In this document: positions 612 to 61,395 of the stretch, piece by piece
How the letters are laid out: each line of letters opens with the position of its first letter
Numbering within the stretch: position 1 is the stretch's first letter
Assembly: GCA_945900965.1 (NCBI GenBank)
Contig: CAMDKM010000003.1
Span: 7,639-71,638, forward strand
Source of the DNA: Bordetella parapertussis
GTDB taxonomy: Bacteria > Pseudomonadota > Gammaproteobacteria > Burkholderiales > JACQAP01
Direction: 5' to 3'
Length of the DNA: 64,000 nucleotides
Translations under genes and position numbers: made by a program
Notes under the pieces: generated by a model
Told to the model about the DNA's origin: nothing
The model's database searches: none
Seen by the model: only the letters and a program-made list of their open reading frames with translations

Positions 612-2882
612 ATGCGCGAGCCAACACTAAACCAAAAAACGAGGTTCGTTCTCCTACTCGTCGACGTGGTGATTCTCTGTGCTGCGAGTTGGTTCGCGTT
701 TGGCAGAGTGTTTCCGGCTGGCGACGACAAAGGCTTCTGGTTCTACACTGCATTGTTGGGACTTCTTCTCGGAAGTCGGCTCGATACTCCCTTCTTCGCC
801 AAGCCCGCGGACGTCGTTCTCTACGCCGCACCCGCAGCTATTGCACTCGCATTGGGCAACTCCTGGACGCAGTGGAGTGAGGGTGTTCGTGTCGCCTATT
901 GTGTCGCAATGACATTTTGCATCGTTGCTGGTGTGCTTGGAGCGATTGCAATTCTCACCGTGGACAGCAAGACCGGTGGTACGCAAAGAGCATCGAACGC
1001 CGCTCGCGTCTTGGCGGAAACGCTCGGTGCGCCGCGCACGATCTATTCGGTCGTCATCGCCTTCGCGTTGTTCGCGTTCCACGGCTCGTCGCCGAAGGAA
1101 TTGGGCATCATCGTCGCAGCTTGGGTGTTGACCGGAGTGCTATCGCCCCTTGAAGGGTCTCTAAGAATCATACGGCGGTTGCGGCGAATCTTCAAACCCA
1201 ACACTATTTTCGACGCTGATGGAGAAGTCGTCGCTTACCAGACACCAGGATTAATCCTTGTTCGCCAATTCGGTTCAGGAAATGTCGAGACTGGCGACGT
1301 TGTCGCCGTGCATGACCCGCTCGGTAAGACCCGATTGGCACTTGCGCTTGACAATGTGGGTCGAGACGAAGGCGTGTTGCTTCGGACGATAGAGATTGCC
1401 GATGCCGAAGTCTCGGACGAACTCCGCGACCAGCTATCCGTACTTCTGCCGAATGCTGTCGTTCGTGTCCTCGCGCTTGACGAGGCGACCGTTCAAAATC
1501 GTCTGGTTAAAACAAAGGGGGCTCTTGTAGGACTGGTCGCGCCGGACACTTCGGTGGAAAGGCTCTTCTTCGAGGTTGTGAAGGAGGAAGGTCTTGAAGA
1601 AGGACGCTTGGTCGAAGTGCAGATTGGTAAACGCGTCGTCACGTATCAGCTGGTAAACGGGCTAACCAAAGAGGAAGTCGTCCAGCACAAGAACACACAC
1701 GGGTTTGCTCGCGCCCAAGCCCAGAAAATTGGCGAGTGGGATGCGGCAAGTAAGCGATTCACGTTCGTGAAGTGGCTGCCCGCTCCAAACGCTCCGGTCC
1801 TCCTGAAAACTACGGCAGAGTTCGTGACGAGCAGCAACGCCGTGGGGCATTTCCCGGGAACAGACTACCCAGTCTCAATCAAAAGTATCGACGATTTAGT
1901 AACGCACAACACTGCGATCCTCGGCATCCTCGGAGTGGGAAAGAGCATGCTGGCGATCGAACTCGTCGAGCGGATGATGGCGGCGGGCGTCAAAGTCATC
2001 TGCCTTGACTTGACCAATCAATATTCTCAGGAACTCTCGGCTTATTACGACCAAGTCCATGAAGAGGCTTGCCTGGCGAATATTCAGGAAGCAGGGCAGA
2101 AGGACCGCGAAGCGTGGGCGGATAATCCTGAGGACGGCGGAAGCATCCCTGCGTTAAGAGAGGCGTTTCACGCTGACCTGGTCGCTTATTTGGACGAGGA
2201 CAATCCTCGGCGGTTGAAAATCTATAATCCGTCTCAGGTGGTCGGAAGCAAACAACTAAGCGAGCCCAAATCTTACAATGATGGAGGGTGGAAACGCGGG
2301 GCGGCTCTTTGGGGTGTGACGCCAGTCGAAGTGACACGCATCGTTTCCGAAACCGTACTGACGCTCCTGCAAGACAAGATGTCCTCCAAGGCACGGGTGT
2401 GTTTGGTATATGAAGAAGCACACTCGCTCATTCCAGAATTTAGTGCTGTAGCCTCACCTTCCGACCGAGAAGCGAGCAATGGAACGGCGCGAGCAATTCT
2501 ACAGGGGCGAAAGTTCGGACTTGGCTGTCTGGTTGTGACCCAACGGACGGCCAACGTGACAAAGACGATCCTTAATCAGTGCAACACGGTATTCGCGATG
2601 AGGACCTTCGATGAAACCGGGAAGGAGTTCCTGGCAAACTATATTGGTAAAGATTATGCGGCTTCGCTGTCATCCATTTCCGAGCGCCACGCCGTGTTCT
2701 TTGGCAAAGCGTCGAGTTGTGAGAATCCGATCTTGATACGACTGAACGACCGAGAGGAGTTCCGTCAGGCATTCCGCGCTGAGAACCCGCCGCCTGCGCT
2801 TCCCTCGGAAGATAAGACTCCCGAGGTAACGCGACCGGCAGCCCTTCCGGGCAATCATCCGGACGACGATACTCCGTTTTGA
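612..2882 (+). CDS. Polytopic-membrane HerA/DUF87-type P-loop ATPase (FtsK/HerA clade), embedded in the type I R-M operon
   Basis: 756-aa ORF with ATG 612, 13 nt after the hsdS stop. aa ~10-190 contain about six hydrophobic helices (FVLLLVDVVILCAASWFAF, VAYCVAMTFCIVAGVLGAIAILTV, IYSVVIAFALFAF, LGIIVAAWVLTGVL and others). The middle region is beta-rich. The C-terminal core has Walker A GILGVGKS (nt 1923-1946), Walker B LVYEEAH (nt 2403-2423) and GRKFGLGCLVVTQRTANV, the HerA/DUF87 pattern. The tail is Pro/acidic and ends DDDTPF. Confidence 0.8.
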   Translation: MREPTLNQKTRFVLLLVDVVILCAASWFAFGRVFPAGDDKGFWFYTALLGLLLGSRLDTPFFAKPADVVLYAAPAAIALALGNSWTQWSEGVRVAYCVAMTFCIVAGVLGAIAILTVDSKTGGTQRASNAARVLAETLGAPRTIYSVVIAFALFAFHGSSPKELGIIVAAWVLTGVLSPLEGSLRIIRRLRRIFKPNTIFDADGEVVAYQTPGLILVRQFGSGNVETGDVVAVHDPLGKTRLALALDNVGRDEGVLLRTIEIADAEVSDELRDQLSVLLPNAVVRVLALDEATVQNRLVKTKGALVGLVAPDTSVERLFFEVVKEEGLEEGRLVEVQIGKRVVTYQLVNGLTKEEVVQHKNTHGFARAQAQKIGEWDAASKRFTFVKWLPAPNAPVLLKTTAEFVTSSNAVGHFPGTDYPVSIKSIDDLVTHNTAILGILGVGKSMLAIELVERMMAAGVKVICLDLTNQYSQELSAYYDQVHEEACLANIQEAGQKDREAWADNPEDGGSIPALREAFHADLVAYLDEDNPRRLKIYNPSQVVGSKQLSEPKSYNDGGWKRGAALWGVTPVEVTRIVSETVLTLLQDKMSSKARVCLVYEEAHSLIPEFSAVASPSDREASNGTARAILQGRKFGLGCLVVTQRTANVTKTILNQCNTVFAMRTFDETGKEFLANYIGKDYAASLSSISERHAVFFGKASSCENPILIRLNDREEFRQAFRAENPPPALPSEDKTPEVTRPAALPGNHPDDDTPF

Positions 2883-2886
2883 AATC

Positions 2887-4386
2887 ATGAGTAACCCGAA
2901 CGCCCTCGTCCAAAAACTCTGGAATTACTGCAACATCCTGCGGGATGACGGTCTGTCCTACGGCGATTACGTCGAGCAGTTGACGTTTCTGCTGTTCCTG
3001 AAAATGGCGGACGAGCAGGCGAAGCCGCCATTCAACAAGCCGTCGCCCATCCCCAAAGGCAAGGACTGGCCTGCTTTGCTGGCCAAAGATGGCGACGATC
3101 TCGAGATTCATTACCGCCATACGCTGGAGGAACTCGGAAAACGCTCGGGCATGCTCGGCGTCATTTTCCGCAAGGCGCAGAACAAGATCCAGGACCCGGC
3201 CAAGTTGCGCCGGCTCATCGTAGATTTGATCGACAAAGAGGAGTGGTCCAGCCTCTCCGCCGACGTGAAGGGCGATGCCTACGAGGGCTTGCTTCAGAAG
3301 AACGCCGAGGACGTGAAGGGCGGCGCGGGCCAGTACTTCACCCCGCGCCCGCTCATTGCCGCCATCGTGGACGTGGTCGCCCCGCAACCGGGGCAGGCAA
3401 TTTGTGATCCGGCTTGCGGCACAGGCGGTTTCCTGCTCGCTGCGCATGATTATCTGGCGAAGCACTACCAGCTCGACCGGGCAGAAAAGAAGAAGCTCAA
3501 GAGCGGCACGTTTTTCGGCATCGAACTGGTGGACAGCGTCACCCGTCTCTGCGCGATGAATCCATTGCTGCACGGCATCGGCGGAGAGTCCGAAGAGGAT
3601 TTGCCGGTCGTCACCAAGGACGCACTGGCCGGGAAGCACGGCGAGTACGAGATCGTCCTGGCCAATCCGCCGTTCGGCAAGAAGAGCAGCGTGACCATCG
3701 TCAATGAGGCTGGTGAGTCGTCCAAGGAATCGCTCATCATCAACCGCGACGACTTCTGGGCGAGCACGAGCAACAAGCAGCTCAATTTTCTCCAGCACAT
3801 TTTCACCATCCTAAAGCAGCACGGCCGTGCGGCGGTGGTGCTGCCGGACAACGTGCTGTTCGAAGGCGGCGCCGGTGAAACCATCAGGCGCGAATTACTC
3901 AAGCAGGCAGACGTTCACACCCTGCTGCGCCTGCCTACCGGCATCTTCTACGCGCAAGGCGTGAAGGCGAACGTCCTGTTCTTCGACCGCAAGCCCGCGC
4001 AGGAAAAACCGTGGACGCAGAAGCTGTGGATCTACGATCTGCGCACTAACCTGCATTTCACGCTCAAGGAGAACACCCTCAAGCGCAGCGACCTCGACGA
4101 CTTCGTCGCCTGCTACAACCAGAAGAACCGAAACGATCGCAAAGAGAGCGAACGCTTCAAGGGCTTCACTTACGAGGAACTGGCGAAGCGCGACAAAGTG
4201 AACCTGGACATCTTCTGGCTGAAGGATGAGGCGCTGGAGGAGTCCGCGAATCTACCGGCGCCTGAAGTCATCGCACAGGACATTACGGATGACCTGGAAG
4301 CGGCGTTGGAGCAGTTTCGATTGATTGCCGATGATCTCAATAGTGGAGAATCCGAAATTGAAGCCACGGAAGCGTCGAACACCTAA
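2887..4386 (+). CDS. hsdM: Type I R-M DNA methyltransferase subunit HsdM (N6-adenine)
   Basis: HsdM N-terminal domain LWNYCNILRDDGLSYGDYVEQLTFLLFLKMADE, SAM motif DPACGTGGFL, and catalytic NPPFG (nt 3664-3678). The ATG is 4 nt after the upstream stop. Confidence 0.93.
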   Translation: MSNPNALVQKLWNYCNILRDDGLSYGDYVEQLTFLLFLKMADEQAKPPFNKPSPIPKGKDWPALLAKDGDDLEIHYRHTLEELGKRSGMLGVIFRKAQNKIQDPAKLRRLIVDLIDKEEWSSLSADVKGDAYEGLLQKNAEDVKGGAGQYFTPRPLIAAIVDVVAPQPGQAICDPACGTGGFLLAAHDYLAKHYQLDRAEKKKLKSGTFFGIELVDSVTRLCAMNPLLHGIGGESEEDLPVVTKDALAGKHGEYEIVLANPPFGKKSSVTIVNEAGESSKESLIINRDDFWASTSNKQLNFLQHIFTILKQHGRAAVVLPDNVLFEGGAGETIRRELLKQADVHTLLRLPTGIFYAQGVKANVLFFDRKPAQEKPWTQKLWIYDLRTNLHFTLKENTLKRSDLDDFVACYNQKNRNDRKESERFKGFTYEELAKRDKVNLDIFWLKDEALEESANLPAPEVIAQDITDDLEAALEQFRLIADDLNSGESEIEATEASNT

Positions 4387-5083
4387 ACGGGTTGGCACAC
4401 GGGCGCTGGTAGTAAACCGCCTGGAGAACGTCTCGAAGGACGTTTTCAAACAGTACTACGCGCTCATTACTGAGTTAGTTGGGGACTCACCTGGCATCTA
4501 TGCTCTTTACGACGGCGGGGCCCTCTACTACGTTGGGAAGTCGACGGAACTTCGTAAACGGGTTCGACACCATCTTAAAGATCGTCATCTCGCGAGTTGG
4601 ACGCATTTCAGTCTCTATCTCGCCCGACGTGAAGAACACATCCACGAGATTGAATCGCTTCTGGTCAGAATCGCGAACCCCAAGGGAAATCGAGTGATCC
4701 CGCGTGGCAGATCCACAGGGGCAATGGTTAAGCAGCTCAAGAGTTTGATTAAGGAGCGGCAAAAGCAAGAGCTAGCGAATTTATTCACCAGTAAACAGGC
4801 GGCTGGCAACGTGCGGCGACGCTCAATCAAGAGCGTTGGAACACATTCCCTAGCAGGACTTGTGAGTCGGCCGACAAAGCTCTACCGGACTTACAAAGGC
4901 CGGGAATACTCCGCGACGCTGAGCCCAAAAGGCTATGTGACTCTTAAGGGACGGCGTTTCAATTCAGCCAGCGCAGCAGCCAGATCTTTGATCAAGGCGA
5001 AGGGCGCAGTCAATGGGCGGGCGTTTTGGTACATCCGAAGCGGTAGTGGGGATTGGGTGAGGCTCATGGAATACCGAGGCTAA
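4331..5083 (+). CDS. GIY-YIG nuclease-domain protein with C-terminal DUF4357/RAMA-like domain
   Basis: GIY-YIG motif GIYALYDGGALYYVGKSTELRKRVRHH with a downstream conserved E. The C-terminus FNSASAAARSLIKAKGAVNGRAFWYI resembles the R-M-associated DUF4357/RAMA module. The ORF opens at TTG 4325 and the first ATG is 4331. It overlaps the hsdM 3' end by ~56 nt. Confidence 0.75.
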   Translation: MISIVENPKLKPRKRRTPKRVGTRALVVNRLENVSKDVFKQYYALITELVGDSPGIYALYDGGALYYVGKSTELRKRVRHHLKDRHLASWTHFSLYLARREEHIHEIESLLVRIANPKGNRVIPRGRSTGAMVKQLKSLIKERQKQELANLFTSKQAAGNVRRRSIKSVGTHSLAGLVSRPTKLYRTYKGREYSATLSPKGYVTLKGRRFNSASAAARSLIKAKGAVNGRAFWYIRSGSGDWVRLMEYRG

Positions 5084-5089
5084 TCCAAC

Positions 5090-6073
5090 GTGCGCTACTG
5101 GTGGGTAAACCAGAATCAAACTTACCGACATGAAGTGTCGGGAGGATATCTTTGGTCCCCAAAACGAAAAGCAAACGGAGCAATCAATCCGTTTTACGAA
5201 TTCATGCGAGAGGTAGCCCCTGGGGATATGGTCCTATCCTTTAGGGACACCTTAATTTGTGCGATAGGTATCGCGCAGTCGCATTGCTACGAATGTCCTA
5301 AGCCGAACGAATTTGGCTCCGTGGGAATGAATTGGAGCATGATTGGATGGAAAGTAGACGTAAAGTACGTCGAACTTTCGAATCGTATCCGTCCATTCGA
5401 TCACATTAGCGCGCTCCGTCGTTACCTCCCTGACAAATACTCTCCCTTGTCGAATGCAGGGAGAGGTAGTCAGTCTGTATACCTGACGGAAATGCCGATA
5501 GGTCTATTCAATGCGCTGGCGAGTCTGATTGGAACGGAAGTTCAGCACGCGATTCAGATCGCAAAAAGTGTCGCTCGGATGCCCGGAGCGAATCGAGCGC
5601 CCGCAGAAGGTGTCGTGGTATGGGAAGAACACTTAAGGCAGGAACTTGAACGAGACATCTCAATAAATGAAACAGAGCGCGAGGCAATTGTTCTTGCTCG
5701 CCGTGGGCAGGGCCTCTTTCGGCGCCGCGTGTCTGAGCTTGAAGCGCGTTGTCGTGTTACGCGTGTTTCCGAGCCAGAGCATCTTCGCGCGAGCCATTGC
5801 AAGCCCTGGCGCGACAGCTCTAACGAAGAGCGCCTTGACGGAGAAAATGGATTGCTTCTAACGCCTAGCATCGATCATTTATTCGATCGGGGGTTCATCT
5901 CGTTTGAGGCCAATGGTCGTTTGCTAATTTCTCCGGTGTCTCACAAAGTCTCTCTTCAGAAAATGGGAGTTGAGACTGACGGGAAAGTGGTTGCAGGAGG
6001 CTTTAGCGAGGGACAACGGAAATACCTCGAGTACCATCGTGAGTCGGTGTTTCTGCAGGCAAAACGACGCTAA
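5090..6073 (+). CDS. HNH endonuclease with N-terminal PUA/EVE-like putative modified-DNA reader domain (type IV restriction-like)
   Basis: GTG start 6 nt after the upstream stop. HNH_2-type motif LRASHCKPWRDSSNEERLDGENGLLLTPSIDHLFDRGFISF. The N-terminus MRYWWVNQNQTY..GGYLWSPK..PGDMVLSF..ICAIGIA resembles PUA-superfamily readers; this fold assignment is by eye. Confidence 0.7.
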   Translation: MRYWWVNQNQTYRHEVSGGYLWSPKRKANGAINPFYEFMREVAPGDMVLSFRDTLICAIGIAQSHCYECPKPNEFGSVGMNWSMIGWKVDVKYVELSNRIRPFDHISALRRYLPDKYSPLSNAGRGSQSVYLTEMPIGLFNALASLIGTEVQHAIQIAKSVARMPGANRAPAEGVVVWEEHLRQELERDISINETEREAIVLARRGQGLFRRRVSELEARCRVTRVSEPEHLRASHCKPWRDSSNEERLDGENGLLLTPSIDHLFDRGFISFEANGRLLISPVSHKVSLQKMGVETDGKVVAGGFSEGQRKYLEYHRESVFLQAKRR

Positions 6074-6880: not shown

Positions 6881-7056
6881 CTTTTAGGACACAGCAGCTT
6901 CGGCCGTAAGTGCTGCGCCTTTTAAGTTCACAGAGGAAAATCAAGAACGTATTTCATTTTCAAGTCTCACCCATCTGGTGAGCGCACCTCGCCGACTCAA
7001 CCCCTTGAATCTCTCTGTGTTCTCTGTGGCCAAGTGCTTTTTCTAGGATAAACCTT
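6881..7056. repeat. Foldback MITE-like element, copy A1 (CACAGAG-type arms)
   Basis: The left arm is reduced to ACACAG...TTCACAGAGG and interrupted by a 32-nt module. Central hairpin TCTCACCCATCTGGTGAGC. Right arm CTCTCTGTGTTCTCTGTGGC, followed by the terminal motif CAAGTGCTTTTTCTAGGATAAACC. Confidence 0.7.
6890..6921. repeat. 32-nt hairpin module CACAGCAGCTTCGGCCGTAAGTGCTGCGCCTT, copy 1
   Basis: An identical 32-mer recurs at 17659-17690. It contains a GCAGC/GCTGC stem. In both loci it sits inside the arm array of a foldback element. Confidence 0.8.
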
Positions 7057-7236
7057 AAAACAGCAACTCAGCCACAGAGTTCACAGAGAACACAGAGTAC
7101 ACAGAGGAAAACCAAGGACCTAGTGTGATCGAGCTTCTCACCTAATTGGTGAACGGGCATCGACAAATAACCCGTTGTTTCTCTCTGTGATCTCTGTGTC
7201 CTCAGTGGCTGAACTGCGGTTTTTAGGTTTATACCT
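7057..7236. repeat. Foldback MITE-like element, copy A2
   Basis: Left arm: CACAGAG x4 at exact 9-nt period (7073, 7082, 7091, 7100). Central hairpin CTCACCTAATTGGTGA. Right arm: CTCTGTG, CTCTGTG, CTCAGTG at 9-nt period (7183, 7192, 7201). The terminal motif GCGGTTTTTAGGTTTATACC ends at the neighbouring stop codon. Confidence 0.8.
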
Positions 7237-17439: not shown

Positions 17440-17611
17440 GGTTATCGTAAAAACAGCACCACAGAGAGACATCGAGGCACAGAGAAAAACAGATTCTTGC
17501 GTCTATCGGTGCACACACCAAAAAGGTGAGCACTGCTGGCACGACAACCGATTGATATTTTGATCTTCTCCGTGTCTCTGTACCTCTGTGGTGCGATTTT
17601 CAGGATAAACC
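17440..17611. repeat. Foldback MITE-like element, copy B1
   Basis: Terminal motif GGTTATCGTAAAAACAGCA. Arms CCACAGAG..GCACAGAG and CTCCGTGTCTCTGTACCTCTGTGG. Central CACCAAAAAGGTGAG. Right terminus GATTTTCAGGATAAACC. It begins 9 nt after the oxygenase stop. Confidence 0.75.
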
Positions 17612-17619
17612 AGCGTCCA

Positions 17620-17830
17620 TTCCATTAAACCTAAAAACCGCAATTCAGCCACAGAGGTCACAGCAGCTTCGGCCGTAAGTGCTGCGCCTTAATAACACAG
17701 AGAGATTCAAGGGTTTGAGTCCGCCTGCCACACTCACCAAATGGGTGAGCATAAGAAACAACATACGTTCTTGATTTTCCTCTGTGCCCTCTGAGCCCTC
17801 TGTGGCAAATTGCTTTTTCCAGGTTAAATC
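17620..17830. repeat. Foldback MITE-like element, copy B2
   Basis: Left terminus TTAAACCTAAAAACCGCAATTCAGCCACAGAGG. The 32-nt module is inserted in the left arm. The core 17701-17779 is the reverse complement (~80% identical by eye) of the A1 core 6938-7016. Right arm CCTCTGTGCCCTCTGAGCCCTCTGTGGC plus TTGCTTTTTCCAGGTTAAATC, which contains the EVE stop codon. Confidence 0.8.
17659..17690. repeat. 32-nt hairpin module, copy 2
   Basis: Identical to 6890-6921. Confidence 0.8.
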
Positions 17831-18279
17831 AGACCCATGACGAAATCCCATTCGCGGGATTCCACGGGGGTGATCGACAGGCGATTGCCTCGCTGGAGGA
17901 CGCGCATGGCCGCAAGCTCTTTATGCACGCGCAATTCCGGCAGTCCCACCAGGCGGGTCTTTTTCGCCAGCGTCACATCGACGTTGAACCAACGTGGCGT
18001 GTTTTGATCAGCTTTTGGGTCGAAATAAGGGCTCTTTCGATCGAACTGGGTTTCGTCCGGGTAAGCCAGGCGAGATACCCGAACGATGCCCACGATGCCC
18101 GGTTCCGGGCAACTCGAGTGGTAGAAAAATGCCTGATCTCCCAAGGCCATTCCATCGCGCATGAAATTTCGCGCCTGATAATTGCGCACACCCCACCAGG
18201 CCGCGGTCTTGCGGGGAGCGGCGGCCAGATGCTCGATGCCGAAGACATTCGGCTCGGATTTCATCAACCAATAATTCAT
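17824..18279 (-). CDS. EVE domain-containing protein (PUA-like)
   Basis: MNYWLMKSEPNVFGIEHL..WWGVRNYQARNFMRDGMALGDQAFFYHSS is the canonical EVE signature. The likely ATG is at 18279. Confidence 0.88.
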   Translation of the reverse strand: MNYWLMKSEPNVFGIEHLAAAPRKTAAWWGVRNYQARNFMRDGMALGDQAFFYHSSCPEPGIVGIVRVSRLAYPDETQFDRKSPYFDPKADQNTPRWFNVDVTLAKKTRLVGLPELRVHKELAAMRVLQRGNRLSITPVESREWDFVMGLI

Positions 18280-18364
18280 GCGCAAAGGCGGCAAAAAAAT
18301 AGAGTTCCGAGATGGAACCCTATTCTTGATGTTTTCACACTTTTCTGCACGAGCAATATTTCTC

Positions 18365-19204: not shown

Positions 19205-19234
19205 TTGGCCCAATCACCGGGAAATCGTTAGAAT
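19205..19234 (+). promoter_or_regulatory. Putative sigma70 promoter for the riboswitch-receptor transcript
   Basis: TTGGCC (19205-19210), an 18-nt spacer, then TAGAAT (19229-19234), just upstream of the riboswitch. Confidence 0.4.
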
Positions 19235-19242
19235 TTGTCCAT

Positions 19243-19510
19243 GCTCTCGGGTGCTCCGGTCGAATTCTTCGTCGGAGTCAAACGGGAAACAGGTGCGGAA
19301 TTCGTCTTTTGCTGCCATTCGTCCACTGGGTACTTCCGTGGGCGTCCGTGTGGCGTTGGCGACCCAATTCCTGTGCTGCCCCCGCAACGGTAAGCGACTA
19401 AAGGGGCGTGTCTCTCAGCCACTGCGAAGGTTTTCGGCCAGCGATTTCTGCCGGCTGCTTCATGGGAAGGCGACACGCCCGATTCGCAAGCCCGGATACC
19501 GGCCCGACGA
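19243..19510 (+). promoter_or_regulatory. Cobalamin (B12) riboswitch
   Basis: Conserved blocks are AAACGGGAAACAGGUGCGGAAUUC, GCUGCCCCCGCAACGGUAAGCG, AGCCACUG, GGGAAGGCG and the B12-box-like AAGCCCGGAUACCGGCC. It lies in the 5' leader of a TonB-dependent receptor. Confidence 0.85.
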
Positions 19511-19637
19511 GCGCAAACGGAGTTTCCGCGCGGGGCGGGCATCCGGCGGCAGCCTCTGGCTTTCCTCCTGGTTTTTCCCTGGCGGGCTCCTTTTTTCGAG
19601 CCATGCATGCGGTGGGCATGCCATTCAGGGAGAAAAC

Positions 19638-27282: not shown

Positions 27283-27570
27283 GTTCCTAAAGAAAAGCTC
27301 GACGCAAAGGCGCAAAGTTCGCAAAGGACGCGAAGAAAATCAGATCACGGAAAAACCTGGATAGCTCCCAACATGTCATTCCCGTGGAAACGGGAATCTA
27401 GGGTTTTCAATAGAAACCCATTGCCCGCTCCTGGAAAAAACGATTCGGGGGCAAGCTTCGCAGGAAGACAATTTGTCTGGAGGTCGGTGCCGATCCTTTG
27501 CCGCCGCTATGAACGTCTAATAACTCCGTATTGGGGTTTCTTTGCGTCATCTTTGCGCCTTTGCGTCAAG
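27283..27570. repeat. Foldback element, copy C (CGCAAAG-type arms), composite
   Basis: Left: TTCCTAAAGAAAAGCTC plus GACGCAAAGGCGCAAAGTTCGCAAAGGACGCGAAG. Right: TTTGCGTCATCTTTGCGCCTTTGCGTC, the reverse complement. The ~200-nt interior carries a REP-like palindrome. It starts 4 nt after the patD stop. Confidence 0.7.
27375..27398. repeat. REP-like palindrome GTCATTCCCGTGGAAACGGGAATC, copy 1
   Basis: Stem ATTCCCGT / ACGGGAAT. A reverse-complement copy lies at 34528-34547. Confidence 0.7.
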
Positions 27571-30223: not shown

Positions 30224-30889
30224 ATGACAGCTTTTCCGCCCTGCACGATTGACCATCTCGTCGTCACCGCGTTCAGTCTCGAAGTCGGCGTTAAGTGGGT
30301 GGAAAAGCAGCTCGGCGTCGAGCTGCATCCAGGCGGCGAACACCCGAGCATGGGCACCCACAACTATCTGCTCAGGTTGGGGGAAATCACCTATCTCGAA
30401 GTCATCGCAATCAATCCCGCTGCGCCAAGGCCGCCCCGACCCCGCTGGTTCGAATTGGATCGCTTGACACCGCATTCCGCGCCGCGCCTTGCCTCCTGGG
30501 TGGCGCGTACTGCCGATATTCAGGCGACCTACTCGGCAAGCAGTTTAAACTTGGGGGCCATCCTGACCATGCACCGTGGCGATCTGGAGTGGCGCATCAC
30601 CGTTCCCGATGACGGCGATTTCGTTCTCGGCGGCATTGTTCCGATGTTGATTGAATGGAATACGCCGGCTCATCCAGCCTCGCGCCTACCGGATTCGGGA
30701 TGCAAGCTGCTTCGTCTCGACGGGACTGCCCAGGATGAAAAATATGCAGCCGCGACATTGGGCTCGATTCACGCAGAGAACTTGCTCACTCTGCAATCGG
30801 CGAAGGCCAATGCGTTACCCGCCCTGACTGCACATATTCTTACGCCGGATGGACCGAAGAAGCTGAATCAACCCAAAAAAAGCAGTTGA
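30224..30889 (+). CDS. VOC/glyoxalase-like domain protein
   Basis: [57 protein letters not shown] is typical of glyoxalase-like (PF13468-type) proteins. Confidence 0.7.
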
Positions 30890-31044
30890 ATCACGGAGAA
30901 TACGGAGATCACGGGGAAAAACAATGAGATACTTCTCTTTGTACGTTCACCTTCTGGGTGAGAGGCTGGGGCAGTATAAGTTCTTGGATTTTCTCCGTGT
31001 ACACCGTGTCCTCCGTGATTCAATCGCCGTTTCTAGGATCAAGC
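30888..31044. repeat. Foldback MITE-like element, copy D (CACGGAG-type arms)
   Basis: Left units TCACGGAGA, ATACGGAGA, TCACGGGGA (30891-30917). Central TTCACCTTCTGGGTGAG. Right units TCTCCGTGT, ACACCGTGT, CCTCCGTGA (30992-31018). Terminal motif CGCCGTTTCTAGGATCAAGC. It overlaps the upstream TGA. Confidence 0.8.
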
Positions 31045-34566: not shown

Positions 34567-37299
34567 TCAATGCGCCTTTTCCCAGTTGGGGCCGATACCG
34601 ACGTCCACCACCAGCGGTACCGCCAGTTTTGCCACCCCGTTCATCAGTTTCGGCAACTCGGCCTTCACCAGATCCAATTCGGGTTGCGGCACCTCCAGCA
34701 CTAACTCGTCATGCACTTGCATGATGAGGCGGCTGTGAAGTTTTGCTTCCGTGATCCAATTTTGCACCACGATCATGGCCATCTTGATCAGATCGGCGGC
34801 GGTGCCTTGCATGGGCGCGTTGATCGCCGCACGCTCCGCGCCTTGGCGGCGTGGGCCATTGCCGCCCTTGATTTCCGGGAGATATAACCTGCGTCCGAAA
34901 ACGGTTTCCACATAACCCAGCGAGCGGGCCGACTCCCGGGTGCGCGCCATATAACCGGCCACGCCAGGGTAGCGCATGAAATAACGTTCCATATATTGCT
35001 GGGCGGCCGAACGCTCGATACCCAGTTGTGAAGCCAGGCCAAAAGCAGACATGCCGTAAATTAATCCGAAGTTGATCACCTTGGCATAACGGCGCTGCTC
35101 GCTGCTGACCGCGGCAGTTCCCAGGCCGAAAATTTCAGCCGCGGTGTGACGATGCACGTCTTCCTCCGCGGCAAAAGCCTTGAGCAGCCCGGGATCCTCG
35201 GACAGGTGCGCCATGATGCGCAGTTCAATCTGAGAATAATCGGCCGATACGATGACCGAACCGGGGGGCGCGATGAAGGCCTCGCGAATCCGCCGGCCTT
35301 CGGCGGTGCGCACTGGAATGTTCTGCAAATTGGGATCGTTGCTCGACAAGCGGCCGGTTACCGCCACGGCCTGACCATAATTGGTGTGCACGCGGCCAGT
35401 CTTGGCGTTCACCATGCGCGGCAGCTTGTCGGTGTAGGTGGATTTGAGTTTGGTGAGCCCGCGATATTCGAGAATCAGTTTGGGCAGCGGGTGATCGAGG
35501 GCCAGTTCCTGCAAGACGTCCTCATCGGTCGATGGTTGGCCTCCAGGCGTTTTTTTCTTGACCGGCAGGCCCTGGCGCTCGAAAAGGATTTCCTGCAATT
35601 GTTTGGGGGAATTGAGATTGAAGGGCTGACCGGCCTGCTGATAGACCGCCTGTTCGAGTTCCATCATCTTGGCGCCCAGTTCGCGGCTCTGCACTTCCAG
35701 CAAGCCGATGTCGAGCAATACGCCCGTGCGTTCCATGGTAAACAACACCCGACTGACCGGTATTTCGATGTCGCGATAGATTCGCGACAGCTTTTCATCT
35801 CCTTCAATCTGCGGGAACAGCACTTGATGCAACTGCAGCGTGATGTCTGCATCTTCGGCGGAATATTCGGTGGCGCGGCCCAACTCCACTTGTTCAAATC
35901 CGATCCGATTGGCCCCCTTGCCGGTCACCTCGTCGTAACTGATGGTGCTTGCACCCAGATGGCGACTGGCCAGATCGTCCATATCGTGGGGGCGGTGACT
36001 TTCCAGCACATAGGATTGCAGCAGAGTGTCGTGCTCGATGCCGTGCATCTCGGCGCCATGGTTGGCCAGAATATGCCGGTCATACTTCAGGTTCTGACCG
36101 ACTTTCCGATGCTGCGAATCGCGCAGCCAGGGATCGAGTCTGCGCAACACTTCATCGCGCGAAAGTTGTTGGGGAACGCCTGCATAGTGATGGGCGACCG
36201 GAATATAAGCGGCCTTGCCGGGCTCCACCGACAGAGATATCCCCACCAATTGCGCAGTCAGCGGATCGAGCCCGGTGGTCTCGGTGTCGATCGCGGTCAG
36301 GCGGGCACCGGAGATTTTTTCCAGCCAGTCCGAAAGCTGTGCATCGGTGAGGACTGTCTCGTAGCTGCGCTCCGAGGAGGGGCGAGGGGCGAGGGGCGAG
36401 GGGTGAGGGGTGGCTGGGCTCGTTTCAAATTCTCGTCCCTCGTCCCTCGTCCCTCGTCCCTGTAATTCTTTCAGCCAGGTCTTGAATTCCAGCCGGTCGA
36501 AGAGCTCCACAAGGGCTTCGTTGTCCTCGGCCTTGGGCGTCAATTCCTCGATCTTCAGAGGTAATTCGACGTCACACTTGATGGTGAGCAGTTTGCGCGC
36601 GGTGGGCAGCCAGGGCAGCGCCTTGCGCAGGTTCTCTCCTACCACGCCCGGGATATCCGCCGCGTGGGCCACCACGTTGTCGATTGTCTGGAATTGCGCC
36701 AGCCACTTCACCGCCGTTTTCGGGCCGACTTTTTCCACGCCCGGCACGTTGTCAACGGAATCCCCGATCAGGGTCAGGTAATCGACCATCTGCGCTGGCG
36801 CCACGCCGAACTTGCCGACCACCCCCTTCTCGTCGAGGTTTTCGTTGGACATGGTGTTGACCAGGCGCACCATCGGGTTCACCAGCTGGGTGATGTCCTT
36901 GTCGCCGGTCGAGATGACAGTCTGAATGCCTGCTTGGGTGGCCTGAGTGGCCAGCGTTCCGATGACATCGTCGGCTTCGACACCCTCGATCATCAGCAAG
37001 GGCCAGCCCATCGCACGAATACTGTCGTGCAAGGGCTCGATCTGGCGCACCAGTTCCTCGGGCATGGAGGGCCGGTTGGCCTTGTATTGCGGATACCAGT
37101 CGTCGCGAAAAGTCTTTCCTTTTGCGTCGAATACGCAAGCGATATAATCCGCCGCGGTTTCCTTTCGCAGTCGTTGCAGCATATTGAGCACGCCGTAAAC
37201 GGCGCCGGTTGGCTCGCCTTTCTTGTTGCGCAAATCCGGCAGCGCGTGAAACGCCCGATACAGGTAGGAAGAGCCGTCGACCAGCAAAAGTGTTTTCAT
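34567..37299 (-). CDS. polA: DNA polymerase I
   Basis: 910 aa. 5'-nuclease domain N-terminus MKTLLLVDGSSYLYRAFHALP, 3'-5' exonuclease motif AIDTETTGL, and polymerase motifs DYSQIELR and QVHDELV. Confidence 0.95.
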   Translation of the reverse strand: MKTLLLVDGSSYLYRAFHALPDLRNKKGEPTGAVYGVLNMLQRLRKETAADYIACVFDAKGKTFRDDWYPQYKANRPSMPEELVRQIEPLHDSIRAMGWPLLMIEGVEADDVIGTLATQATQAGIQTVISTGDKDITQLVNPMVRLVNTMSNENLDEKGVVGKFGVAPAQMVDYLTLIGDSVDNVPGVEKVGPKTAVKWLAQFQTIDNVVAHAADIPGVVGENLRKALPWLPTARKLLTIKCDVELPLKIEELTPKAEDNEALVELFDRLEFKTWLKELQGRGTRDEGREFETSPATPHPSPLAPRPSSERSYETVLTDAQLSDWLEKISGARLTAIDTETTGLDPLTAQLVGISLSVEPGKAAYIPVAHHYAGVPQQLSRDEVLRRLDPWLRDSQHRKVGQNLKYDRHILANHGAEMHGIEHDTLLQSYVLESHRPHDMDDLASRHLGASTISYDEVTGKGANRIGFEQVELGRATEYSAEDADITLQLHQVLFPQIEGDEKLSRIYRDIEIPVSRVLFTMERTGVLLDIGLLEVQSRELGAKMMELEQAVYQQAGQPFNLNSPKQLQEILFERQGLPVKKKTPGGQPSTDEDVLQELALDHPLPKLILEYRGLTKLKSTYTDKLPRMVNAKTGRVHTNYGQAVAVTGRLSSNDPNLQNIPVRTAEGRRIREAFIAPPGSVIVSADYSQIELRIMAHLSEDPGLLKAFAAEEDVHRHTAAEIFGLGTAAVSSEQRRYAKVINFGLIYGMSAFGLASQLGIERSAAQQYMERYFMRYPGVAGYMARTRESARSLGYVETVFGRRLYLPEIKGGNGPRRQGAERAAINAPMQGTAADLIKMAMIVVQNWITEAKLHSRLIMQVHDELVLEVPQPELDLVKAELPKLMNGVAKLAVPLVVDVGIGPNWEKAH
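36374..36462. repeat. Palindromic heptamer-array element inside polA
   Basis: The plus strand carries a (GAGGGGC)-type array of ~5 units (36374-36413), a 19-nt spacer, then (TCGTCCC)x4 (36433-36462). The arms are reverse complements except for one position per unit. It is translated in frame as GTRDEGREFETSPATPHPSPLAPRPSSE. Confidence 0.85.
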
Positions 37300-37324: not shown

Positions 37325-38053
37325 ATGAACGAAAAAAAGAAGATTCCAGATCCGCTTGTCCCGGAGCTGGTCGACAAGGCCTGGACGTCGCGTGAATCCT
37401 GGCGAGTGCTCAAGATTATGTCAGAATTCGTGCAGGCGACCGAACGTCTTGCGCATGTTCGTCCCGCGGTCAGTATCTTCGGCAGCGCGCGCACGCCGAG
37501 CGATCATCCCTACTACAAGCTGAGCGAAAACATCGCGCGGCAATTGTCCGACGCCGGCTTCAGCGTCATATCCGGAGGCGGACCGGGCGTCATGGAAGCG
37601 GTGAACAAGGGTGCGTATGCGGGACGTTCGCTGTCGGTCGGGTTGAATATCCAGTTGCCGCACGAACAGGTGACCAACCGTTATCAGGACGTCAGCCAGA
37701 CATTCCGGCATTTTTTTACCCGCAAGGTCATGTTCGTCAAGTTCGCCTGCGCCTACGTGGTGATGCCGGGCGGGTTTGGGACCATGGATGAACTCATGGA
37801 AGCGCTGACCCTGGTACAAACCGGCAAGATCGCCCGCTTCCCGATCATCATGGTGCAGTCCTCCTATTGGCGCGGCCTCATCGACTGGATCAAGGATCGG
37901 ATGGTCAGCGAACGCATGATCAGCCCGGAGGACATGGATCTCATCCAGTTGATTGACGAGCCCCACGAGGTGGTCGAAGCCATATTTGATCACTATGAGA
38001 AGCGCGGCTTCGAACCCACCGCCGCCGAGCGCGAAGCGCAATTGAACCTCTGA
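37325..38053 (+). CDS. LOG-family / TIGR00730 Rossmann-fold nucleotide-binding protein
   Basis: AVSIFGSARTPSDHPYY, SGGGPGVMEA, PGGFGTMDEL. Confidence 0.85.
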   Translation: MNEKKKIPDPLVPELVDKAWTSRESWRVLKIMSEFVQATERLAHVRPAVSIFGSARTPSDHPYYKLSENIARQLSDAGFSVISGGGPGVMEAVNKGAYAGRSLSVGLNIQLPHEQVTNRYQDVSQTFRHFFTRKVMFVKFACAYVVMPGGFGTMDELMEALTLVQTGKIARFPIIMVQSSYWRGLIDWIKDRMVSERMISPEDMDLIQLIDEPHEVVEAIFDHYEKRGFEPTAAEREAQLNL

Positions 38054-38216
38054 ACCCCCAAAAACTTATTTGCCACAGAGGACACAGAGTGCCCAGAGAA
38101 AATCAAAACAACCGCCTTGGCTGGTGCGGTGTCCCTCGGGGATACATCCATGGAAATGTAGATTCGAATTTCTCTGTGTCCGCCGTGGCAGATTTTTCGC
38201 TCTTGAACTAAATCCT
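38053..38216. repeat. Foldback MITE-like element, copy E
   Basis: AACCCCCAAAAACTTATTTGCCACAGAGGACACAGAGTGCCCAGAG ... CTCTGTGTCCGCCGTGGCAGATTTTTCGCTCTTGAACTAAATCC. It fills the whole LOG-thrB spacer. Confidence 0.75.
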
Positions 38217-42094: not shown

Positions 42095-42178
42095 GCGGAA
42101 AGCGGGAAATAATGCAATGAGGATGCCGAATTATACGGGCTCATCGCTAGCCAGCTCACAAATTCGGGAGCCTGTTGA

Positions 42179-43048
42179 TTACCGCAAAGGTGCAACTTTT
42201 GGCTCAAGATCGGAGTGGGCCGTCTTAATCCTGGCCGCCAGCGATTGAGCCTCTTTCTCGCTCGGTAATCCGGACAGTAAGACCCGGAACCGCTGCCCGC
42301 TCCCTACAGGAATGACCTTGACCGGGTAGCCGTCGACGCGCAAGCGGTCATGGATCGCGAGTGCGGCCGACTGACTGTCTACTTCGGCAAGATTAATTTT
42401 CCAGCGGCCGCCGCGGACAATAAAGCCATGTCCCGGGGAAATCTCGGTTTCCGCAGCCCACTGCCCAAGCTGCTGGGCCGGTACTGCCTGCACCGAAGCT
42501 GCCCCCTTGCGCGGCGCCTGCAAGTACGTCAAGGGCTCTTTCATTTCCACCGGGGCATCGCCTGCGCGGCTGATAGTGATGGCCCCTTCGATCAGCACGA
42601 CCACTTCGCTGTCTCCGAGATTCTTGCCCCAGATATCCGTGCCACGGATGCCGACCGTAACGGTGGGAAACTGGACGCTGACATTTCTCCTGCCCCGTGC
42701 GCTCAGCGCGGCACTGGTGGTGAATCGAAACGCGCCTTCGATAACTTTCAGAGTCGCGGTCAGCAAGTTTTCTTCCCGGCGTTGCGCGATTGCGGAAACT
42801 TTCAGCCGGGCGTTTTCCCCGAGTTTCACCTGGCTGCCATCCCCCAGGCGGAGCAAGACTCGGGAGTTGGTCCCGGTGGAAATTTCGTCCTGCGCCCTGA
42901 GGATCGCGCCGGCTGCAAGAGGCTGGCGTTTGGTGTCACGGGTAAGCCAGGCCGGAAGCTGGACGCCTTCGACAACTGCATCGGAAGCGGCTAGCGAATT
43001 CAGACTTGTCGTCAAGAGCAACGACGCCAATAGCAGGCGAGAGATCAT
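42179..43048 (-). CDS. Secreted FecR-domain protein with C-terminal SPOR domain
   Basis: Signal peptide, a FecR-like beta region (SRVLLRLGDGSQVKLGENARL), and a C-terminal SPOR-like region WKINLAEVDSQSAALAIHDRLRVDGYPVKVIP..FRVLLSGLPSEKEAQSLAARI. Confidence 0.7.
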   Translation of the reverse strand: MISRLLLASLLLTTSLNSLAASDAVVEGVQLPAWLTRDTKRQPLAAGAILRAQDEISTGTNSRVLLRLGDGSQVKLGENARLKVSAIAQRREENLLTATLKVIEGAFRFTTSAALSARGRRNVSVQFPTVTVGIRGTDIWGKNLGDSEVVVLIEGAITISRAGDAPVEMKEPLTYLQAPRKGAASVQAVPAQQLGQWAAETEISPGHGFIVRGGRWKINLAEVDSQSAALAIHDRLRVDGYPVKVIPVGSGQRFRVLLSGLPSEKEAQSLAARIKTAHSDLEPKVAPLR

Positions 43049-43081
43049 GGCAGGGCTCCAGTTGAAACCTAGATGGCATGA

Positions 43082-45739
<2,658 letters not shown>

Positions 45740-45785: not shown

Positions 45786-46328
45786 ATGAAATACGTCGCG
45801 CTGTTCGCGGGTTTATGCCCCTCGTCCCTCGCCCCTCGTCCCTCGCCCCTGATCATCGCGACCTTGGGCGCGATGATCCTCTGCGCCTGTGGATTTCAAT
45901 TGCGCGGGCCGGCCGTCATTCCTTTCAATACGATAAGAGTGGAAGCAGAAGGCCACTCTGAAATTGGTCAGGAACTGGAACGCGCGATTCGCGCCAGTAA
46001 GAAAACCGAGATCGTGGTGCCGCCGAAGGTTGCCGAAGCCGTGTTGAAAATCATTGGCGAGGGGCAGGAGAAGTACATTCTGGCTTTGTCGTCGGGTGGG
46101 CGCGTTCGGGAATTCGAGCTGCGCTATCGCGTCTTTTATCGACTGACGAATGCCGATGGAGCGGATTTGACACCGGCCGGCGAAATTTTGCTGCGGCGAG
46201 ACATGAGTTTCGACGATACCCAGGTGCTGGCCAAGGAAGCCGAGGAAGCGCTGCTGTTCAGGGACATGAAATCCGACGCGGTGCGGCAGATCATGCGGCG
46301 CCTGTCCGCCATCAAAAGAGCATCATGA
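45786..46328 (+). CDS. lptE: LPS-assembly lipoprotein LptE
   Basis: It follows leuS, the conserved synteny. Lipobox ILCAC then GFQLRG, typical of LptE. Confidence 0.8.
45817..45851. repeat. Heptamer array (CCCTCGY)n inside the lptE signal-peptide coding region
   Basis: GCCCCTCGTCCCTCGCCCCTCGTCCCTCGCCCCTG, translated as [12 protein letters not shown]. Confidence 0.85.
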
Positions 46329-52918: not shown

Positions 52919-52953
52919 GGTGAGGGGCGAGGGGCGAAGGGCGAAGGGCGAAG
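52919..52953. repeat. Heptamer array (GAGGGGC/GAAGGGC)n at the gatA-gatB junction
   Basis: GGTGAGGGGCGAGGGGCGAAGGGCGAAGGGCGAAG. In the gatB sense it would encode [12 protein letters not shown]. Confidence 0.85.
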
Positions 52954-60532: not shown

Positions 60533-61395
60533 TGGCGGGACGAGGGGTGAGGGACGAGGGGCGAGGAATCAAGCGGGTATCTGTTCTGGCATTGATCATC
60601 GTCGCGCTGTTGGCGCTTGCGGGGTGCGGCGGTGCGCCGTCAAAGCCGGGGGGCTATTATCTGGATGATGGGCCCGGGCCAAATCCGCCGACTGATCTGG
60701 ATGCCATTCCCGAACCGGTGCCGACGAGCGAGCCCATCAATCCCAACACCAGTCGCCCTTACACTGTTCTCGGGCGTCGATATATACCACTCCCACAGGC
60801 GCATCCCTACAAGCAGCGTGGCGTGGCAAGCTGGTACGGAAAGCGCTACCACGGCCAGAAAACTTCCACGGGAGAAATCTACGACATGTATGCGATGAGT
60901 GCCGCCCACACGGTGTTGCCATTGCCGAGTTACGCCCGAGTTACCAATGTGGCCACCGGCAAGTCGGTGGTGGTTCGGATCAACGACCGCGGCCCGTTTC
61001 ACGACGAGCGTCTGATCGATCTGTCATACGCCGCCGCTCATAGAATAGGAATCATCGGCACCGGCAGCGCGCTCGTGGAAGTCGAAACCCTTTTGCCGGG
61101 CGCTGCCGGTGCCGCTCCGCAATCTTCACCCGCCACCTCGCTTGATGTGGCGGAACCTGTCCCGCAAGGCGGTGTTTTCGTGCAGCTCGGCGCGTTCACG
61201 ATCACCGATAATGCCGAGGCCTTCGTCGAGCGCCTGCGCCGCGAGCAGACATGGCTGGCGGCATCGCTGCGTGTGGTCCACGGCGAAAACGTCCACAAGG
61301 TGCAATCCGGACCTTATGCCACGCGCCAGGAAGCCATGGCGATCATCGAACGCGCCAGACAGGCTGGCATGGAAGCCTTCACCATCGATCCCTGA
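60529..61395 (+). CDS. rlpA: Septal-ring lytic transglycosylase RlpA (lipoprotein with DPBB and SPOR domains)
   Basis: Lipobox LALAGC. DPBB motif GVASWYGKRYHGQKTSTGEIYDMYAMSAAH..VRINDRGPF. C-terminal SPOR region VFVQLGAF..HKVQSGPY. ATGA overlap with rodA. Confidence 0.9.
   Translation: MMAGRGVRDEGRGIKRVSVLALIIVALLALAGCGGAPSKPGGYYLDDGPGPNPPTDLDAIPEPVPTSEPINPNTSRPYTVLGRRYIPLPQAHPYKQRGVASWYGKRYHGQKTSTGEIYDMYAMSAAHTVLPLPSYARVTNVATGKSVVVRINDRGPFHDERLIDLSYAAAHRIGIIGTGSALVEVETLLPGAAGAAPQSSPATSLDVAEPVPQGGVFVQLGAFTITDNAEAFVERLRREQTWLAASLRVVHGENVHKVQSGPYATRQEAMAIIERARQAGMEAFTIDP
60537..60566. repeat. Heptamer array (GGGACGA/GGGGTGA)n at the 5' end of rlpA
   Basis: GGGACGAGGGGTGAGGGACGAGGGGCGAGG, translated as GRGVRDEGRG directly after the start codon. 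Confidence 0.85.

Follow-up and report, generated by a model that had tools for sequence, protein, structure and literature searches.

Correia elements have 26-bp inverted repeats (TATAGTGGATTAA...), a TA duplication, promoters and an integration host factor (IHF) site, and pneumococcal BOX elements are small intergenic mobile repeats with tandem subunits in variable number. The inverted repeats of Foldback elements are hundreds to thousands of base pairs long, consist almost wholly of repeats and come with a 9-bp duplication. The IS1380 family of insertion sequences, to which ISEcp1 belongs, is listed with CC ends and 4-5-bp duplications and has a distant relative in piggyBac, which ends in CCCTAGAAAGATA. 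In Neisseria, the Correia/NEMIS element is an abundant MITE (miniature inverted-repeat transposable element), 100-160 nt in length, that forms a long hairpin when transcribed, has no known cognate transposase and is often nested or paired (PMC10969869). Porphyromonas gingivalis carries BrickBuilt, a small, intergenic MITE with tandemly repeated subunits in variable number (PMC4596501), and ISEcp1 has the left inverted repeat CCTAGATTCTACGT and 5-bp AT-rich direct repeats (ACTCA, TAATA, TAAGA; PMC6061673). Here we describe a family of short foldback elements whose arms hold tandem heptamer arrays, found in 64,000 nt (the window) of contig CAMDKM010000003.1 (positions 7,639 to 71,638, assembly GCA_945900965.1), deposited as Bordetella parapertussis. 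The family is likely a bacterial MITE of Betaproteobacteria, moved by a DDE transposase encoded elsewhere in the genome.

An earlier note on this DNA, made from the letters alone, had reported seven copies of one foldback family in five intergenic sites. On direct reading, all seven stretches are present at about the positions it reported. A search of the window with a profile built from a 22-copy alignment found exactly six members (copies A, B, C, D, F and G), so that the claim of a single family holds for these six and fails for the seventh, E. The order from the outside in is an A-run/T-run terminus, two to four heptamers at a 9-nt period, a core and the mirror image; these direct repeats and their mirroring in the other arm were plain on reading the stretches, as the note had described them. 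Most copies use CACAGAG as array unit, while F has CACGGAG and E has GCGCAAAG, each mirrored in the opposite arm, and the proposed CTCACC...GGTGAG core is there in A, B, C, D and F and missing from G and E. With up to one mismatch, CACRGAGNNCACRGAG matches the window 14 times against 0.06 expected from shuffles, and all 14 matches fall within copies A, B, D, F and G. Likewise, TCACC-N5-GGTGA has six window matches against 0.01 expected, four of them element cores. Repeat finders pick up the arrays and give the inverted arms of copy B as 50 nt with 84% complementarity; folded as RNA, this copy reaches -70.4 kcal/mol (z = -6.6), and copy D folded as DNA gives z = -3.3.

Loci beyond the window were gathered in two collection scans, one of genomes for three CACRGAG units and one of metagenomes for AAAANGC-N6-10-two units. 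We extracted 21 elements with both termini, two rows of which (L194/L203, 111 nt) look like one element on both strands. Perfect 5-bp direct repeats lie right outside CCT...AGG in 11/21 complete copies and, after a 1-nt boundary shift, in a twelfth (L216), and a further 3/21 have 5-bp repeats with one mismatch. The duplications are TTCAT, TTGAA, GTAAT, TTTAT, ATTAA, ATAAA (twice), ATCAA (twice), TTTAA, TTAAA and GTTAT, about 90% A+T by our own count from this list. Because the direct repeats stand immediately outside CCT...AGG, the outer GGTTTAn is target DNA. Thus, of the outer terminus GGTTTAnCCTrrAAAAnGC given earlier, CCTrrAAAAnGC is a real terminus, and the boundary had been set 5-7 nt beyond the actual end. 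Read correctly, the termini are CCTAGAAAAAGCAGTTAGCC...GGCTAACTGCTTTTTCTAGG, with the consensus CCTrrAAAAnGC...GCnTTTTyyAGG, and the ends seen are CCTAG/CCTAA/CCCAA...CTAGG.

The earlier note had named target-site duplications and presence/absence polymorphism as signs to look for, and both were found, the former as 5-bp repeats around collected copies and the latter at two sites in relatives of the window. Over 34.0-48.8 kb the window has a counterpart of about 89% identity in contig L125. That contig shares copy G and has a further copy, matching F at 89.5% identity, between MetW and an MFS gene, a place where the window has a short spacer only and no element. The L125 junction reads ...GG GTAAT [CCTAGAAAC...TTTTTATAGG] GTAAT AGACGC and the window junction ...GG GCAGT AGACGC, with a single pentamer. 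Together they make a clean pair of filled and empty site, with a 5-bp duplication. Site G measures 167 nt in the window and 154 nt in L125. In L126, L127 and L128, relatives at 82-83% amino-acid identity, it is empty and 8-12 nt long; no inverted tandem-repeat arrays occur in 20.7 and 13.9 kb of sequence from these relatives. Between the orthologous G copies of the window and L125, the core has diverged far more than the flanking genes and the unit number differs. Nesting was also seen: a CACAGAG copy sits inside another element with CGCAAAG arrays (L018), and one copy abuts the array of another element (L161).

The element is about 155-167 nt long, roughly 160, with copies of 155-194 nt in all, and has no coding capacity; the open reading frames (ORFs) that overlap them are parts of flanking genes or antisense artefacts. 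In the 22-copy alignment, the left end CCTAAAAACCGCAGTTCAAGCC and the right end GGCTAACTGCTTTTTCTAGG, which form imperfect terminal inverted repeats, are kept across several genomes, and since the two ends differ consistently, the element has an orientation. The same alignment shows usually three heptamers per arm, a conserved TCACC-N4-6-GGTGA core and a conserved cTTGaTTTTC ahead of the 3' array. A profile search of the collected loci found at least 35 full-length copies. Their named hosts include Sulfuricella, Rhodocyclaceae UBA2271 (with two in tandem), Sideroxydans, Gallionella and a Burkholderiales metagenome-assembled genome (MAG), and among the matches listed all full-length members in named genomes are from Betaproteobacteria. 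The window itself matches MAG GCA_040081635.1 and a 144-kb ENA contig, and the closest relatives of the neighboring window proteins are from Burkholderiales or Betaproteobacteria MAGs; a metagenome search with one of these proteins (260 aa) found no relatives. The earlier note had not recognized a named bacterial repeat family here, and the searches agree. At Rfam gathering thresholds the window has a single match, a cobalamin riboswitch at another place, E-value mode yields nothing but weak matches to miRNA hairpins (17-26 bits vs thresholds of 79-171), blastn of A+B against PLSDB plasmids gave no match, and no description of the element, its terminus or its array strings turned up in the searchable literature by sequence string or keyword. 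One paper on intrastrand triplexes proved unrelated.

The family thus combines a size below about 300 bp without coding sequence, terminal inverted repeats, a duplication of fixed length and dispersed, polymorphic copies, the sequence features by which a MITE is recognized, apart from a known partner. Such an element would have moved by cut-or-copy-and-paste with the transposase supplied in trans. Its ends and duplication fit an IS1380-type DDE enzyme, a lead from two features that makes membership putative. We prefer such an enzyme to a Foldback-type one because of the 5-bp duplication and the CCTAG...CTAGG ends. As in ISEcp1, the ends start with CCTAG and the duplications are 5-bp and AT-rich, but the sequence similarity stops after 5-6 nt, and unlike IS1380 members the copies have no transposase gene. 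We know of no tandem heptamer arrays in IS1380-family ends. The autonomous partner would be 1.5-2 kb long, with CCTAGAAAAAGC ends, heptamer arrays and a 5-bp duplication. That no transposase lies in the window, as had been noted, is borne out by a scan of 30 window ORFs (0/30), which include neither a RAYT-type nor any other transposase family. Several candidate partners were rejected. L243 and L168, from a generic scan for CC...GG inverted repeats with duplications, encode a sigma factor and a membrane protein. The L063 arrays, 1.7 kb apart, are two separate small elements around housekeeping genes, and a solo terminus in L218 is followed by ychF/pth-like genes.

What do the heptamers do? The 2-nt spacers between them are complementary between arms at 40% of positions, vs 33% in permuted pairs. 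Because the spacers are barely complementary while the heptamers match, the heptamers are conserved as sequence and not merely as pairing partners. Arrays hold 2-4 units (18-36 nt) and differ between copies by exact 9-nt steps, changes that probably arise through replication slippage. Subterminal repeats are transposase-binding sites in hAT, CACTA, P, Tn7 and Mu. Each arm has its array just inside the terminus, oriented to the end as such sites are; by analogy, the most likely role of the arrays would be that of iterated transposase-binding sites.

Each window copy adjoins a gene 3' end or shares its intergenic site with a copy that does. In a genome of 58% G+C, AT-rich pentamer targets would be concentrated at gene ends, and selection would purge insertions in genes and promoters. 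This combination of AT-rich target and selection against disruptive insertions may explain why the surviving copies are found right at stop codons, in most cases where two genes converge. The EVE-domain gene (17824-18294, minus strand) takes its stop codon from the right TTAAA duplicate of copy D, and the Glyoxalase_3 ORF (30224-30889) runs into the left terminus of copy F and stops at a TGA within the element. As RNA, the element forms a long hairpin of 7-bp helices parted by small internal loops, with a basal helix GCAGUUAGCC/GGCUAACUGC followed by U5 in either direction. If transcribed, it may act as a two-way terminator or 3'-end stabilizer and hence be tolerated at gene ends; we regard a terminator-like or 3'-end-protecting effect as plausible from the predicted fold.

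Several observations weigh against this account. The gap between A and B is exactly 5 nt, ATAAA, and the pentamers flanking B (7048-7052, 7228-7232) are inverted, ATAAA / TTTAT; those flanking C (17441-17445, 17605-17609), GTTAT / ATAAA, are not direct repeats either. Inverting the 10-kb segment from B(-) to C(+) would give the direct duplications ATAAA/ATAAC and ATAAA/ATAAA, a pattern that hints at past recombination between copies, but the gene order of L126 suggests that the present order is ancestral. A simple scan of the elements found no canonical terminator and no sigma-70 promoter, which bears on the terminator step. As for the autonomous partner that the earlier note thought worth seeking, searches of the window and of about 1.5 Mb of collected loci found none, nor any paired termini 0.4-5 kb apart with matching duplications. 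Since no partner was found, the IS1380 assignment rests on 5-6 terminal bases together with the length and composition of the duplication. Finally, the same heptamer arrays occur in other phyla with no detectable duplications, which a pure transposase-site role leaves unexplained.

This last point leads to the alternative that survives best. Among the matches listed, a scan of genomes for three CACRGAG units returned Acidobacteria, Planctomycetes, Chloroflexi, Verrucomicrobia, Bacteroidetes, Spirochaetes, delta- and gammaproteobacteria, cyanobacteria and others, and three-unit arrays are also abundant in viral contigs. Abundance by itself was rejected as an argument for a pan-bacterial element: two control heptamers are abundant in viral contigs as well, and 9-nt-period arrays are common as such, probably as coding repeats. 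What is specific to CACRGAG is the inverted arrangement, the unit number and the flank only. Among the matches listed, an inverted second array in 9-nt register within 450 nt accompanies 54% of CACRGAG arrays (at least 3 units) in GTDB genomes and 16% in viral contigs, vs 0% and 1% for the two control heptamers; the unit number is 3 in 125/136 arrays from genomes and 157/159 from viral contigs, with controls ranging from 3 to 16. The outer flank a.aaa.atTTaAC is common to the genome and viral sets. Around arrays outside the CCT...AGG family, direct repeats of 4-9 bp show no excess over control. Some of these elements have the opposite topology (CTCTGTG array, AAAAAGC-TTGAAC, CACAGAG array) and some stand just ahead of start codons; some phage contigs hold six copies beside other tandem arrays. 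Units with purine spacers read like repeated Shine-Dalgarno sequences (GAGGA, GGAGGA).

On this evidence, [A-rich]-TT(A/C)A(G/A)C-(CACRGAG NN)x3, usually with an inverted copy, could be an undescribed cis-element of many phyla and phages with the MITE as one vehicle, a proposal that we consider unlikely. If real, it could offer an array of sites to some conserved protein or form, as RNA, a hairpin that pairs Shine-Dalgarno-like with anti-Shine-Dalgarno-like repeats. The cross-phylum arrays may be one ancient module, several decayed MITE families or the outcome of convergence. A stronger version takes the inverted arrays as the functional unit, so that the MITE would spread by delivering a widespread [A-rich]-TTAGCC-(CACRGAG NN)x3 cis-element that is bound by a conserved host or phage factor or acts as RNA, with one purine, Shine-Dalgarno-like arm and one anti-Shine-Dalgarno-like arm. 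The excess of inverted partners, the sharp preference for three units, the shared flank, the six-copy phage contigs with several arrays a few nucleotides before start codons and the lack of duplications around the non-MITE elements all speak for it. We nevertheless judge it improbable, since 9-nt-period arrays are common and part of the solo arrays may be coding, the subterminal placement in both MITE arms has the look of transposase sites, and spacer dinucleotides that yield GGA are only some of those seen.

In two phage-like contigs, L298 and L322, different short tandem arrays form a mosaic in most intergenic regions; CACAGAG arrays of three units, a few nucleotides upstream of start codons, are among them. 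This pattern suggests a repeated promoter or 5'-untranslated-region cassette.

Copies at gene 3' ends, often between convergent genes, strong hairpin folds, head-to-tail pairs with common junctions as in BIMEs and the lack of a nearby transposase would also suit REP/BIME- or REPIN-like hairpins of RNA or DNA, selected at gene ends as mRNA stabilizers, terminators or gyrase/IHF sites, that recombination or a RAYT-type HUH enzyme would have spread. HUH/RAYT-mobilized REPs make no duplications. The perfect 5-bp duplications in more than half of the complete copies and the clean filled/empty pair are instead signatures of a staggered-cut DDE reaction, and the heptamer spacers show no covariation, so that conservation is not of pairing alone; we consider such an origin very improbable. 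Least credible of all is local growth by replication slippage and arm-to-arm template switching, with the foldback plan a mutational by-product lacking function or mobility: although unit number varies by whole 9-nt steps in orthologous and paralogous copies and inverted tandem arrays with other units occur in the same genomes, this idea is largely refuted by target duplications and by dispersed homologous copies, which at unrelated loci share ~20-nt unique termini and a conserved core with up to 89.5% identity, and it fits neither the clustering of unit number at 3 without drift nor spacers that are not copied between arms. The individual copies are listed in Table 1.

Table 1. Coordinates of the elements, their sites and other features (window positions unless a collected locus is named).
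Feature	Coordinates	Strand	Description
Copy A	6886-7047	-	right end intact (..GCTTTTTCTAGG, ends 7047), left end disrupted
28-nt insert CAGCAGCTTCGGCCGTAAGTGCTGCGCC	6892-6919	+	after CACAG in array of copy A
28-nt insert, second occurrence	17661-17688		in copy D
Copy B	7053-7227	-	complete
Copy B arrays	7073-7106; 7183-7207		4 CACAGAG units opposite CTCTGTG x2 + CTCAGTG
Copy B core	7138-7152		TCACCTAATTGGTGA
Copy C	17446-17604	+	complete, diverged; terminus CGTAAAAAC; units CACAGAG, CATCGAG, CACAGAG
Copy D	17630-17823	+	complete; perfect 5-bp duplication TTAAA (17625-17629, 17824-17828)
Element E	27283-27570	.	CCTAAAGAAAAGC terminus; inverted arrays of GCGCAAAG/CTTTGCG units, 8-9-nt period
Copy F	30872-31037	+	complete; CACGGAG-unit subfamily; perfect duplication ATCAA (30867-30871, 31038-31042)
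Copy G	38056-38203	-	degenerate, without TCACC..GGTGA core; candidate duplication TGAAC (38051-38055, 38204-38208)
Site 1 (A, B)			methyltransferase (+) / ABC ATPase (-), convergent
Site 2 (C, D)			2OG oxygenase (+) / EVE-domain gene (-), convergent
Site 3 (E)			aldehyde dehydrogenase, then ABC exporter
Site 4 (F)			Glyoxalase_3 (+) / metallo-beta-lactamase-fold gene (-), convergent
Site 5 (G)			LOG-family gene, then APH gene
CGCAAAG/CTTTGCG arrays	L018 4690-4960; L029 2798-2876; L112 1617-1642		inverted, 8-9-nt period, as in E
Truncated E	L003 4419-4475		Logan contig, same species, ends 57 nt into E
Array mosaics	L298 9500-13400; L322 1400-10800		phage-like contigs
GAGGGGC/GAGGGAC arrays	36377-36461; 45817-45850; 52925-52953; 60537-60566		7-nt units and complement
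Lower-G+C cluster	612-6073		G+C 0.53, just upstream of A and B
Cobalamin riboswitch	19233-19521		82.8 bits, upstream of 913-aa ORF
uvrD-leuS segment	42142-43091		about 950 nt

The profile strand of copy A is ambiguous (56.4 vs 55.2 bits). Its array is interrupted by the 28-nt insert. Copy D has the identical sequence, likewise after CACAG, in the arm that by the asymmetric core is the opposite one, although the two copies are otherwise diverged; the insert occurs in no other collected locus. The insert is itself a small hairpin. 'Very small mobile repeats' have been reported in cyanobacteria, and the insert resembles them.

Element E has a longer and different core than the CACAGAG family and no recognizable right terminus. 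Because the family profile does not match it, we place it outside that family, and by its sequence E is a separate, related family with the same general plan. Three further assemblies of this species carry E with identical sequence. Elements of this CGCAAAG-array family are also present in Acidobacteriota MAGs and in Sulfuricella, where one is host to a nested CACAGAG copy. The end of a same-species Logan contig (L003) falls within E, which shows that these repeats break short-read assemblies.

The window has further features apart from these elements. A second kind of tandem repeat consists of GAGGGGC/GAGGGAC units and their complement. One inverted pair is in coding sequence, that of polA, at the variable linker that joins the 5'-3' and 3'-5' exonuclease domains (..GRGTRDEGR...PSPLAPRPS..); others are found where an LptE-like ORF and a lipoprotein-like ORF begin and at the junction of gatA with gatB. 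The polA array is also in L125, and the linkers of more distant relatives are alike in composition and unlike in length. The lower-G+C cluster encodes a HerA-like DUF87 protein, an N6 DNA methylase (HsdM-like), a RAMA-domain protein and an HNH endonuclease, and is probably a restriction-modification or defence island. In the stretch of L126 that corresponds to the region of the 913-aa ORF, downstream of the riboswitch, a TonB-dependent receptor is annotated. Where the window has its segment between uvrD and leuS, the 89%-identical contig L125 has 12 nt instead; L126 has FecR/SPOR and PRK genes at this position, and no element termini were seen at 42142-43091.

Taken alone, the family is just another MITE, carried by uncultured Betaproteobacteria that cycle iron and sulfur. 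It can serve as a strain marker, explains assembly breaks such as that of the same-species contig ending inside E, and is a source of altered gene 3' ends, as two window genes have their stop codons in an element or its target duplicate. If the arrays do bind a transposase, the family would give bacteria a clear case of a MITE with iterated transposase sites. Inverted CACRGAG triplets, which recur in distant phyla and phages with an identical flank and free of transposition signs, hint at a widespread and seemingly unnamed motif. A protein or RNA function, if found for this cross-phylum motif, would turn a repeat curiosity into a regulatory element.

Compared with known systems, the family shares with REP, BIME, REPIN and ERIC an intergenic position, palindromic structure, placement at gene 3' ends and many copies, but its sequence is unrelated to theirs. 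It has the target duplications that RAYT-dependent REPs lack, and we therefore set it apart from REP/BIME/REPIN. The short tandem or iterated motifs within inverted ends recall Foldback, hAT, CACTA and P elements. The likeness to eukaryotic Foldback transposons that the earlier note drew is an analogy only: here about 25 nt of repeats, as 2-4 subterminal heptamers, lie inside a unique terminus of about 20 nt flanked by a 5-bp duplication, and the elements fall outside that class. With Correia/NEMIS the family has in common its size, abundance, hairpin, lack of a known transposase and nesting or pairing, but the Correia inverted repeats are unrelated, the duplication is TA and not 5 bp, and tandem heptamer arrays are missing, so it is no Correia element either. 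BrickBuilt and BOX differ in that their units, of 23 nt or 45 nt, form one direct block in the body, with no heptamers mirrored in both arms. MITEs with tandem repeats are thus already known; mirrored heptamer arrays within them are not.

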